A stretch of 64,000 bases of DNA from Euglena gracilis (taxonomy: Eukaryota), in assembly GCA_039621445.1 (NCBI GenBank), contig CP154954.1:44743847-44807846 (forward strand), read 5' to 3'. A program made the translations under genes and the position numbers. The notes under the pieces are model-generated. The model saw only the letters and a program-made list of their open reading frames with translations, did not search any database and had not been told where the DNA came from. Of the stretch, positions 10,318 through 31,094 are shown one piece after another. Within the stretch, counting starts at the first letter, position 1; every line of letters begins with the position of its first letter.

Positions 10318-12311
10318 GCGCAGCGTGGCGGCAGTCCCCCGCGGCCTACCCGGAGGAGGAGGACGCGCCCTTCGTCTACGACGCCGCCGGCCCCACCCGC
10401 TGCCTGATGGCCCTCGGCCTGCAGGCGCTGTTGGATGCGAAGCCGGAGGCGCTGCAGACCCCCGATGCTGACCCCGGGGCGGCCACCGCACACCCTCCAC
10501 CGTGAGTGAGTTCCCCGAGGTTTTGGCCGTTTTTGGTCTTTCCCCAAAGTTGACCTCCAAAAGTGGGTCCCCCAGACCCCCCATCCCCACCCCTGGTTTT
10601 TTAAAGAAAAACCCTGCTGGAGGAGCAGGGGCCAGTTGTAGTCCGCCAACCTAGGTGCATGGTTCGGCGATTCCAAGTCTATGCTCATGGATTCGCACAC
10701 GCACGCACACTCACCCGTTAACTCCCTAACTCATTCACACACAGACACACACACACACACTAACTCACTCAATCACTTACTCAATCACCGCGTATAGCAT
10801 ACACACGTGCACACGCGACAGGAAGGATGGGCACCACCAGGGCGGACGGCACGCCTGCGGGACCCCCCCCCCCCCCGATGGCGGACCCCGCTGGTCGGGC
10901 CGACCCGGGCGGCCAAGGGCAACTACCTGCTGCACACCGCGGCAGCGTCCAAGGCGGCGGATTGCGTGGCGCTGCTGGTCGACCGCCACGTTGCGGTGGA
11001 CCGCCATTTTGACCCCCGCCTCCTCCTCAACGCCCGCGGGGAGAGCCCAGCCAGGCGGATGCCCCCACCCCCTACCAAACATATTTCATGTGTGTGTGCA
11101 TGTGCGTGTGCGTGTGTGCGTGCGTGCGTGCGTGCGTGCACGTGCGTGCGTGCGTGCGTGCGTGCGTGTGTGTGTGTGTGTGTGTGTGTGTGTGTGTGTG
11201 TGTGTGTGTGTGTGTGTGTGTGTGTGTGTGTGTGTGTGTGTGTGTGTGTGTGTGTGTGTGTGTGTGTGTGTGTGTGTGTGGACGCGCACGCGCACGTGCG
11301 TGTCCACACACATTTAACCCCCCCCCAAAAATGAGACCCCCTTGGCCGATCAAGCAAAAATCCAAAGAATAAAACGCCCCCAAAGACAGAATCCCCCCCT
11401 GACGGCACGAAATGCTGAAGAAGGTGAAATTTCAATTTTTGGGGATTTTTGGGTTCCAAAAAAAATAGTTGATGAATGTCAAATTGTACCAATTTACATA
11501 TGGCGCGACGCAAATGCCGAAGGAAAAGTTCTTGGTTGGTGTTTTTGGGAACCTGAAAATGATGTTTTTTTGGGCCCGGGTCAGTCAAGGATGAATCCTA
11601 TACACAAGAACCTCCTGGAGGTTTCCAGCAGCAGGCCCAAAAATAAGACCCGGGACATATTTGGGGGAGGGGGGGTTTAATGCTGCACACACAATATTTA
11701 ATCATATGTCAATGTATTCTGTATTACAGATCAATACATTACAGACAAAATTTAATTATGAGATATGCATTGTTGATCATTGTCTCCTTGCATGTGAATA
11801 AAATTGTGTGCATGTGTGAGTGTGTGTGTGTGTGTGTGTGTGTGCGTGTACGTGTGCGTGCGTGCGTGCGTGCATGCGCACAGCTGCCCACTGGTACAGT
11901 GGGCAGTGGAGTTGCAATTTCATGCGCTCCCCCCCTCCCGCCGCCGCCAACCGATGCACAACAATGGCCGAACGGCGGTGTGAGTGGTGGGATGCCTGCT
12001 ACATGTACCGCGCATCATACGGGGATTTCTGTGTGTCAGGTGGGCGTTTGTGTGGGGGGGCTTGGCACTCACTCCTCCATCCCTTTTGATGGCATGCGGA
12101 GAACACCGAGACCGTGGACGCTGGGCTGTGGGGGCATTGGGGGGGGGGGGGGCGCCTGCCGGCACTCCACGTGGCGGAGGGCCACCCGCCGTGCCTGCAG
12201 GCGCTGGCGGTGTGGCGGCCCGCCGCCGCGCCGCCGCGGGTGCTGTGGCCCCAGCGGTCCAAGAGCGACGCCCTCCTCTTCGACCTCAGCCCCTCCCACC
12301 TCGTGGACAAC
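10318..12311 (+). CDS. Ankyrin-repeat exons of the gene
   Basis: Spliced LQALLDAKPEALQTPDAKGNYLLHTAAASKAADCVALLVD...LLLNARGESPLHVAEGHPPCLQAL matches the ankyrin D/N-x-x-G-x-T/S-P-L-H-x-A consensus. Confidence 0.75.
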
Positions 12312-30300: not shown

Positions 30301-31094
30301 TTTTGACATTGCTTTTGGATTGTGGATGACGTCAGAGATTTAACTCTTTCTGATACTCCTTCTGCCATCATCTGAGCATCACTGCGTTCAAGGTAAGCCC
30401 CCATTCCGATCATGTCACAAACCTTTGTCGAAGCACCGTGCTCGAGCACTTTCGGAGGTAACAAATGGAACGGTCTGTATCTTTCGTAAGAGGATTGTTC
30501 TGCAGGAGCGTTTGCATTTGGTGACACCGGCACATTACCCCTTGTTTTCCCCAAAACCACCTTTTTGTCAAACAAGCTTCATGGGTTTATGTGTGCATGT
30601 GCGGTTGTCGTGCTGTTTTTATCGACAATGCGACGTCCCCCCAAGGGCTTGATGGATAGAAGGCCGGTGCCATGACTTGAGATACGGCCCCCCAGGGCTG
30701 TGTGGGAATCCCCGAACCCCTATGGGGGTGGTGGATGGGGGGAGAGGCCGAAAACCCCCCATCAAGCCTTCCCGCACAGCCCGGGGGCCCCTACATGTCT
30801 GGGGGGGGGGGGGGGGGCGGACCACACACACACATGCACACAACACACACACACACACACACACAACACACACACGCACACGCACACAACACACACAACA
30901 CACACACAACACACACAAAACACACACACAACACACACACACAACACACACAATGCACAACGCACCCGCCCATATATCAACCCCGGTGCCCCAGGGCCGA
31001 CGTGCAGAAGGTGCAGGCGGCGGTGCTCCAATCCCAGAAGGAGATGCTGACGGTCCTGGAGGGCGAGCCGCCCCAGCGCTGCGTGATCCAGTGA
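10318..31094 (+). CDS. Multi-exon gene: ankyrin repeats + ART-like domain + TPR array + C-terminal CaaX (5' end unresolved)
   Basis: Hand-joined exons: ~10318-10469, 10915-11048, 12164-~12311, ~13729-13828, 14349-14458, 14594-14657, 14784-14843, 15460-15542, 15873-15964, 16217-16310, 16613-16701, 16985-17066, 18047-18136, 18830-18930, 19367-19470, 20028-20069, 20424-20575, 20966-21095, 21682-21725, 27528-27604, 28289-28435, 28967-29039, 29303-29437, 30999-31094. Joins keep frame and rebuild motifs across junctions (TPDA|KGNYLLH, GESP|LHVA, ELGARHP|DV). Codons are GC3-rich; stop TGA at 31092-31094. Confidence 0.8.
14349..17066 (+). CDS. Degenerate NAD:arginine ADP-ribosyltransferase-like domain exons
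   Basis: Motif order LTMAQQLTAVWYAGE / HLAPFLKLLLCALQ / FRFDNMTMAVTSPQAARLF / LPGDELEVVFPAIQQYRV / FFVIEMEAV resembles eukaryotic ART domains. ExE is present; the catalytic R and STS are not evident. Confidence 0.45.
18047..31094 (+). CDS. TPR array (kinesin-light-chain/TPR_12-like) exons ending in CVIQ*
   Basis: Repeats such as YGPRHPKVVTGLLCVARDL, IGAHHADVGVTYGQLAGVYEGLGEWDRALAMYERSLEL, LGERHDEVVGTYEQMGKLW and LGARHPDV. Confidence 0.85.
18934..19361. mobile_element. MITE family B forming an intron
   Basis: Ends CAGGGGTTT...AAAGCCTCTG; perfect TSD GCGCTGAT at 18926-18933 and 19362-19369; related internal sequence at ~34820-34975. Confidence 0.8.
20073..20418. mobile_element. MITE family A (hAT-like) forming an intron
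   Basis: TIR CATACCATTGCTTA / TAAGTAATGGTATG; perfect 8-bp TSD GCTGGAGC at 20065-20072 and 20419-20426; internal GTGACTGACTGGTTTT repeats. Confidence 0.9.
22606..27072. repeat. Intronic satellite, 111/145-bp units
   Basis: Each unit is 2-3 copies of a 33-34-bp GGATTTGCCCCCAAAACGACTTGGAAACACAAG plus a 44-bp GGATTTTGTTATTTTTGGGCCCTCGAACAGTTGAGCAACAGAAG. Confidence 0.97.
23757..24110. mobile_element. MITE family A copy inserted in the satellite
   Basis: TIR CAGACAATTGCTTA / TAAGCAATTGTATG; perfect TSD TTTGGGGC at 23749-23756 and 24111-24118; same internal motifs as 20073-20418. Decayed relatives at ~200-510 and ~9226-9535. Confidence 0.9.
27073..27230. repeat. Tandem 33-bp palindromic repeat (related block at 22387-22556)
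   Basis: About four copies of GAGCATCCTCGAGTGTCACTCGAGGATGCTCAT, each nearly self-complementary. Confidence 0.9.
28564..28842. mobile_element. MITE family C nested inside an intron
   Basis: CAGGGGTTTTTTTTA...TAAAAAAAAACCCTG; perfect TSD ATTGAGGG at 28556-28563 and 28843-28850. Confidence 0.88.

Follow-up and report, generated by a model that had tools for sequence, protein, structure and literature searches.

Helix-joined intron ends in a Euglena gracilis gene and their attribution to the euglenid nonconventional class

How are exon borders marked in a gene whose introns lack GT-AG ends altogether? This question is raised by a stretch of 64,000 nucleotides (nt) of Euglena gracilis DNA (assembly GCA_039621445.1, contig CP154954.1, positions 44,743,847 to 44,807,846 of the forward strand), hereafter the window, in which a gene at 9699..31094 on the plus strand encodes an 803-residue ankyrin and TPR protein in 25 exons separated by 24 introns. 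[quoted passage not shown] The class, the pairing between +4 and -6, the spacers and the mutagenesis are already in print; the observation is real, not new, and an earlier note that had described such introns from the raw sequence was a correct rediscovery of a known unusual splicing system.

The gene was delimited through a transcript-derived protein. With one exon-bearing frame as query, a single match was obtained, the 803-residue eukprot entry EG_transcript_1598 (P0001), and its exons were placed by exact-word chaining and enumeration of junctions. Spliced together, the exons form an open frame of 2412 nt that runs from an ATG at 9699 to a stop codon that ends at 31094, and its product is identical to P0001 at 802 of 803 residues, with one mismatch. 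This identity places the gene in a euglenid host, the EG_transcript name series being that of the Euglena gracilis Z1 transcriptome (PMC6366073). Pfam recognises TPR_12, TPR_10 and related repeats in the spliced, NPHP3-like protein, together with a weak ankyrin match. The earlier note had counted 22 introns between 10470 and 30998; the run of introns stands, the count does not, as that span holds 23 (introns 2 to 24) and a further one, intron 1, lies upstream of it at 9760-10332. The window also contains a truncated 5' copy of the gene about 9 kb upstream, a segmental duplicate at 1-2650 that matches 9027-11688 with 99.06% identity over 2667 aligned bases. This copy begins beyond the window edge, comprises the first three exons, introns 1 and 2 and part of intron 3, and stops within intron 3.

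Direct evidence on splicing comes from a comparison of RNA with DNA over 16484-22600. A survey of sequencing runs identified 19 runs containing 8-14% of the sampled words, an exon-like share, and one DNA run with 70%, and also turned up raw RNA-Seq runs under the same species label; the runs compared were X1 and X6 (contigs, presumed RNA), X21 (raw RNA-Seq) and X20 (DNA). The RNA nature of X1 and X6 is a presumption with which their exon-only depth and their joints agree. Joints for introns 12, 13, 14, 16, 17, 18 and 19 are found across these three RNA runs, which come from three studies. Intron 13 is joined from 17066 to 18047 in X1, X6 and 11 reads of X21, with no such joint in DNA run X20; intron 14 from 18135 to 18829, slidable by 2 nt; intron 16 from 19470 to 20028 in contigs of X1 and X6; and intron 12 from 16700 to 16984, slidable by 1 nt, in X6 and X21, X1 having a variant that joins 16698 to 16984 with two letters between. 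The joint of intron 17, 20064 to 20419, slides by 8 nt, a range that includes the 20069/20424 of the earlier note. Introns 18 and 19 do not slide at all: the former is joined from 20575 to 20966 (X6 and 13 X21 reads) and has the borders GG..CC, and the latter from 21095 to 21682 (X1, X6 and 7 X21 reads) with the borders GC..AC. Over the seven joints the borders read TC..GG, GC..GG, CG..GG, GC..CT, GC..TG, GG..CC and GC..AC.

Partial evidence extends to three more introns. RNA starts an exon at 16613, behind intron 11, where a loose end corresponds to the end of exon 11; at intron 20 both X1 and X6 have a loose end behind 21726 that carries on as the sequence from 27529; and at intron 15 the RNA contig pieces stop at 18933 and resume at 19362, which are the two bounds of its slide range. 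In sum, eight introns are removed in RNA, seven of them with exact junctions, and are present in DNA. The earlier note had held that GT-AG junctions or shifted borders in cDNA would overturn its reading; neither is seen at the RNA-joined introns, and intron 19 agrees with its coordinates exactly. Several exon positions are polymorphic between the RNA runs, and in one X6 contig exon 17 is present in a diverged form of 36 letters (region 19471-20419); the differences among RNA runs at 16698-16984 and 19471-20419 are alleles, strains or a paralogue.

Could the inserts be no introns at all, but artefacts of assembly, or could the transcript arise from a copy elsewhere that has no introns? Paralogous copies do exist, as the duplicated 5' part of the gene attests. 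However, DNA run X20 holds no contig with any joined form and its contigs run through exon-intron boundaries, whereas RNA depth is restricted to exons and joints fall at the predicted places in three RNA runs, and we give this explanation practically no credence. The same is true of the proposal that these are conventional spliceosomal introns, of the U2 or U12 type, with borders misplaced by a few bases. Most junctions slide by 1-8 nt, and intron 1 does start with GT in its best placement. Yet among the 95 protein-compatible placements of the 24 introns none has GT..AG, GC..AG or AT..AC borders, in agreement with the earlier claim that the introns are not of the GT-AG type, and introns 18 and 19, which RNA leaves no freedom to slide, have neither; the probability of misplaced borders is negligible.

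What these introns share instead is a pairing of their two ends. In 20 of the 24 introns the ends can be placed so that three pairs form between a 5' spacer of 3 nt and a 3' tail of 5 nt; a 6-nt tail fits introns 11 and 14, and intron 20 forms 9 of 10 pairs, the third being G·G. The earlier note had drawn a helix from +4 to 5 or 6 nt before the next exon in every resolvable intron, and this holds in 23 of 24, intron 7 being irregular; the end pairing it gave for six introns is present in all six, and its proposal that pairing acts across 5.8 kb is borne out in that the helix marks the junctions of intron 20 also. Beyond the shared first triplet, each intron has its own stem, because cognate ends pair in excess of swapped ends. 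At least 9 of 10 pairs are formed by 13 of 24 cognate ends and by 9 of 552 swapped ends that were given equal placement freedom. When the count is restricted to stem positions 4-10, 15 of 24 cognate against 33 of 552 non-cognate ends form 6 or more of the 7 pairs, and in a permutation test on the same positions 0 of 20000 shuffles reach the observed mean. Placements were scored by the number of pairs in ten, a score that agrees with the RNA joints; a contiguous-stem score was rejected, being wrong for introns 6, 7, 9, 14, 18 and 20. At the junctions, a purine starts the downstream exon in 24 of 24 cases and the intron in 22, and a pyrimidine ends the intron in 21. These counts match features described by Milanowski et al. 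2014 (PMC3935182), who reported that +4,+5 and -7,-6 form conserved pairs, mostly CA/TG, that each of the two junctions is a pyrimidine/purine step and that borders can slide, and who proposed a MITE origin.

The introns all lie on the plus strand, and pair counts are given here as formed pairs among ten stem positions. CAG/CTG forms the first triplet in 14 of the 24. With a 5-nt tail these are intron 3 (11049..12163, 1115 nt, 7/10 pairs), intron 6 (14459..14593, 135 nt, 9/10, its terminal helix appearing in both the minimum free energy (MFE) and the centroid fold), intron 8 (14844..15459, 616 nt, 9/10), intron 10 (15947..16237, 291 nt, 9/10), intron 12 (16702..16984, 283 nt), intron 13 (17067..18046, 980 nt), intron 15 (18931..19366, 436 nt), intron 16 (19471..20027, 557 nt), intron 18 (20576..20965, 390 nt), intron 21 (27605..28288, 684 nt, 9/10), intron 22 (28436..28966, 531 nt, with a nested MITE-like element inside) and intron 23 (29040..29302, 263 nt, 8/10); with a 6-nt tail they are intron 11 (16311..16612, 302 nt) and intron 14 (18137..18829, 693 nt, 10/10).

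The remaining introns carry other triplets, again with a 5-nt tail in intron 1 (9760..10332, 573 nt, CAC/GTG, borders GT..GC, 9/10), intron 2 (10470..10914, 445 nt, CCC/GGG, 9/10), intron 4 (12313..13720, 1408 nt, CGG/CCG, 8/10), intron 5 (13829..14348, 520 nt, CGG/CTG, 8/10, with a single protein-compatible placement), intron 9 (15543..15872, 330 nt, CAA/TTG, 8/10), intron 19 (21096..21681, 586 nt, CCT/AGG), intron 20 (21726..27527, 5802 nt, CAG/GTG) and intron 24 (29438..30998, 1561 nt, TGG/CCA, an 11-bp helix, 10/10). Intron 17 (20070..20423, 354 nt) has CAT/ATG and a 14-bp terminal helix. Intron 7 (14657..14785, 129 nt) may start anywhere in 14653-14658; it fits best as CCA/CGG, forming 8/10 pairs with a tail of 6 nt, a helix that its MFE fold lacks.

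Repeats make up part of this intronic sequence. Long (CA)n/(GT)n and related microsatellites occur in introns 1, 3, 9, 11 and 24, at 9980-10210, 11100-11290 (with a (GT)n run at 11166-11280), 15690-15780, 16368-16483 (a (GT)n run in intron 11), 29457-29540 and 30843-30952, and comparable arrays lie at about 5000-5600 and 33000-33500. Intron 20 consists mainly of a satellite array of about 4.4 kb at 22610-27073, built on a 34-nt sub-repeat with higher-order units of 111, 145, 256, 367 and 479 nt and followed directly, at 27073-27226, by 4.7 copies of a 33-nt palindromic tandem repeat.

Several points weigh against so uniform a reading. Fifteen junctions have no nucleotide-level RNA joint, those of introns 1-10 and 21-24 being placed through the protein only and that of intron 15 through contig ends. 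For slidable introns the best-pairing placement was chosen, a freedom that the swapped-end control over ten positions allows for; in the control over positions 4-10 and its permutations the junctions were fixed at their best pairing, which favours cognate ends. The gain in duplex energy is moderate, -30.6 kcal/mol for own ends against -23.7 for swapped ends, because all ends are G+C-rich and share CAG/CTG. Folds of the whole intron do not differ significantly from those of shuffled sequences for intron 6 (z -0.81) or intron 7 (z -0.77), and no convincing helix at the rule geometry was found for intron 7. Finally, eight of the 24 introns (1, 2, 7, 9, 17, 19, 20 and 24) fall outside the published code for the class.

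That code bears directly on the question of whether geometry or sequence defines the splice site. Nomura et al. 2025 (PMC12501133) derived 5'-N3CDG-/-CH'GN5-6|R from knock-in mutagenesis and synthetic introns, with a genome-wide figure of 61.2% for the fit and 38.8% of E. agilis nonconventional introns lying outside the signature. Here N3-CDG...CH'G-N5-6|R fits 16 of 24 introns (14 CAG/CTG, one CGG/CCG and one CGG/CTG), a share near the published one. The earlier note had gone further, arguing that pairing geometry rather than the CAG/CTG sequence marks the junction. In its strictest form this would make an end-to-end helix, 3 nt behind the upstream exon and 5 nt before the downstream one, the sole determinant of the splice site and the first three pairs irrelevant. 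Eight of the 24 introns do carry complementary triplets other than CAG/CTG in the same register (CAC/GTG, CCC/GGG, CGG/CCG, CGG/CTG, CAA/TTG, CAT/ATG, CCT/AGG and TGG/CCA), RNA confirms CCT/AGG with no freedom to slide and CAT/ATG within its slide range, the duplex energies of code-fitting introns (-21.7 kcal/mol) and of the others (-22.0 kcal/mol) are similar, and the published fraction outside the signature is 38.8%. These natural variants show that CAG/CTG is not obligatory and support pairing over a strict sequence.

Published mutagenesis nevertheless demands sequence too. In the knock-in experiments of PMC12501133 any single change in CAG or CTG abolished splicing, and among compensatory swaps at the second position CTG-CAG alone worked, from which the authors infer sequence constraints besides pairing. 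A change in the length of the 5' spacer was not tolerated, whereas one added nucleotide in the 3' spacer was, and a purine was needed at the exon start, as is present at all 24 exon starts here. The need for the motif, spacers, purine and pairing is thus a matter of the literature, and the variants of the present gene are known in their native context, not in isolation. Because of the published requirements for CAG/CTG, spacers and purine, geometry alone is insufficient, at least in the backbone tested; the earlier inference is partly supported, and we consider a rule of geometry alone unlikely. The part of the earlier proposal that stands is that a helix in fixed register marks the junctions, natural triplet variants included; the compensatory mutagenesis it called for is already published and only partly favours a rule of geometry alone.

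The most likely mechanism is one in which, in the pre-mRNA, the inverted ends of an intron would pair, and the helix would bring both junctions together. Pairing would usually begin with CAG...CTG and continue inward as an intron-specific helix. A machinery thought to be other than the U1-dependent spliceosome would then cut on either side of the helix, at a distance of 3 nt upstream and of 5-6 nt downstream, and join the exons. The intron map, the borders, the pairing excess and the contrast between RNA and DNA are results of the present analysis, while the machinery and the chemistry of cleavage are inferred. According to the literature, which is also the source for circularity, the intron leaves as a full-length circle after the conventional introns have been removed.

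Where might such a signal come from? At least introns 15 and 17 resemble inserted DNA transposons of the MITE type. We compared the 8-mer that spans the 5' junction, with 5 exon and 3 intron bases, and the one that spans the 3' junction, with 5 intron and 3 exon bases, and these agree at 8 of 8 positions for introns 15 and 17 and at 6 of 8 for introns 6, 7 and 9; at least 6 of 8 positions thus match in 5 of 24 introns, against 14 of 552 swapped ends. Intron 15 lies between exact direct repeats of 8 nt, GCGCTGAT, in a 5+3 register and closes with a 9-bp helix that includes G·U pairs; partial matches to its element occur elsewhere in the window, at 34802-34971. Intron 17 is made up of a MITE-like element at 20073-20418, with 14-bp inverted ends, and a single copy of the 8-nt repeat GCTGGAGC. 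Depth in the DNA run over introns 15 and 17 is 2x10^4 to 2.8x10^5, where unique bins have about 20, values that are not copy numbers.

Related elements lie in the same window, two copies of each of two families. A second member of the intron-17 family (23757..24110, plus strand, 75% identity) sits inside the satellite of intron 20, with the terminal inverted repeats (TIRs) CAGACAATTGCTTA/TAAGCAATTGTATG and a target duplication, TTTGGGGC, whose 8 bp match perfectly; its empty sites are provided by six repeat units of that array which no element interrupts. The second family is represented by the element inside intron 22 (28564..28842, plus strand; TIRs CAGGGGTTTTTTTT/AAAAAAAAACCCTG, 8-bp duplication ATTGAGGG) and by a longer copy with matching ends at 59951..60633 on the minus strand, whose flanking 8-mers ACCCCTGT and ACCCCTGC share 7 of 8 positions. 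The ends of 20073-20418, 23757-24110 and 28564-28842 are complementary in 9 or more of their first 10 bases, and the target duplication next to the inverted repeats is 8/8 at introns 15 and 17, 23757-24110 and 28564-28842 and 7/8 at 59951-60633. A scan of the window for 8-bp repeats flanking 10-bp inverted ends gave six raw matches, including 20073-20418, 23757-24110 and 28564-28842; a block-shuffle control gave 2 matches in 20 shuffled windows. The other three raw matches were rejected as artefacts of the palindromic tandem repeat at 27073-27226, and decoys with inward gaps were uninformative, the same elements with their long inverted repeats reappearing in them.

In introns 15 and 17 the terminal inverted repeats would form the helix and the 8-bp target duplication would supply the 3+5 spacers. 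Extended to the class, this raises a possibility to which we give somewhat less than an even chance, namely that the nonconventional code mirrors in RNA the structure of a single kind of DNA transposon, the helix being the TIR of a hAT-like MITE and the 3+5 spacers its 8-bp duplication. If the spacers are one 8-bp duplication, cutting at these points would therefore restore the pre-insertion sequence and frame; an element of this type landing in an exon would be harmless at once, and the spacer lengths of 3 and 5 nt would be explained. Duplications of 8 bp are likewise made by the second family, whose ends are CAGGG...CCCTG, and hAT elements are characterised by 8-bp target duplications (PMC3014272) and YARNG termini (PMC3014272, PMC3260210). 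The duplications of four elements here are like those of non-autonomous hAT elements as described in these papers, and CAGGG termini are a property of the second family and of intron 15, shared by the 5' stems of 10 of the 24 introns. Unlike hAT YARNG termini, the intron-17 family starts with CAGAC or CATAC, and no hAT transposase domain was found in the 54 open reading frames (ORFs) scanned, out of 145 listed in the window with at least 100 residues. Other transposon superfamilies also make 8-bp duplications. Against generality, the 22 introns other than 15 and 17 keep no clear duplication remnant, with 70 of 176 positions matching where a fraction of about 0.37 is expected. A literature search, with the J Mol Biol 2021 circular-RNA paper and supplements outside its scope, found no statement of the 3+5=8 link or of a hAT affinity. 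The idea is also supported by a repeat of 8 nt that PMC4770533 describes at a newly acquired gapC intron and reads as a trace of break repair. As a side result, introns 15 and 17, together with the sister element of intron 17, give concrete sequence support to the long-standing proposal of a MITE origin.

An origin from transposons also invites the view that the terminal stems are mere relics of transposon inverted repeats, with no role in the choice of splice site. The inverted repeats and exact 8-nt flanking repeats of introns 15 and 17, and the sister elements that carry 8-bp duplications outside coding sequence in this window, would be expected on that view. It does not sit well, however, with a register that is fixed in 23 of 24 introns while most of them lack flanking-repeat remnants, and it is contradicted by the published synthetic intron that lost function once its 12-bp pairing was removed and by the artificial introns in which pairing restored by unrelated sequence rescued splicing (PMC12501133). 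We regard it as very improbable, and retain the assignment to euglenid nonconventional introns whose ends are joined by a helix.

Apart from this gene, the window holds retrotransposon-like ORFs at 46630-52703 on the minus strand. These comprise, all on that strand, ORFs with an integrase zinc-binding domain (46630-47331), an RNase H (47413-48219) and a reverse transcriptase (48185-48868), and an ORF with matches to both a Dam-type N6-adenine methyltransferase and a C5-cytosine methylase (49791-51125). A 2026 bioRxiv preprint describes retrotransposons that co-opted prokaryotic adenine methyltransferases and mentions E. gracilis. At the right edge, an ORF at 63180-63998 on the minus strand matches the coatomer beta-subunit appendage platform and is probably an exon of a COPB gene that extends past the window end.

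Comparison with known systems places the introns of this gene firmly among their euglenid counterparts. Short non-coding elements with TIRs and target duplications have given rise to introns, or introners, in Micromonas, dinoflagellates and Fritillaria (PMC11282704), and introns 15 and 17 likewise show both TIR and target duplication; introners are removed by the spliceosome through splice signals provided by the element or its duplication, whereas the borders here are non-canonical and set by the inverted repeat itself. The noncanonical introns of diplonemids (PMC12621601) belong to another organism and have other border statistics. Intron 1, with its 5' GT and nonconventional helix, resembles the euglenid introns termed 'intermediate' (Milanowski 2016, PMC4770533; Canaday 2001, as cited there), but its 3' end is GC, not AG. 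With the published euglenid nonconventional introns, which make up 16,151 of 28,337 introns (57%) in E. gracilis, terminal pairing included, according to Gao et al. 2024 (PMC11170887), and 71.8% of introns in E. agilis according to PMC12501133, the gene shares the absence of GT-AG, the pairing of CAG at +4 to +6 with CTG at -8 to -6, spacers of 3 and 5-6 nt, pyrimidine|purine junctions with a purine at the exon start, a helix joining the ends, frequent short direct repeats that let the junction slide, and intron lengths from tens of nt to several kb. Nothing essential differs. What sets the gene apart is that its introns are nonconventional in 24 of 24 cases and that one third of them have triplets other than the CDG/CH'G of the published code. 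If introns were drawn independently, 24 of 24 would have a probability of about 1.4x10^-6 with a 57% share and 3.5x10^-4 with a 71.8% share, but independence is unlikely, conventional introns being old and nonconventional ones recent gains. It thus provides a clean natural test set, with 24 nonconventional introns and no conventional one, in which the first three pairs of one third of the introns are triplets that the code does not cover and the CCT/AGG junction is unambiguous in RNA.

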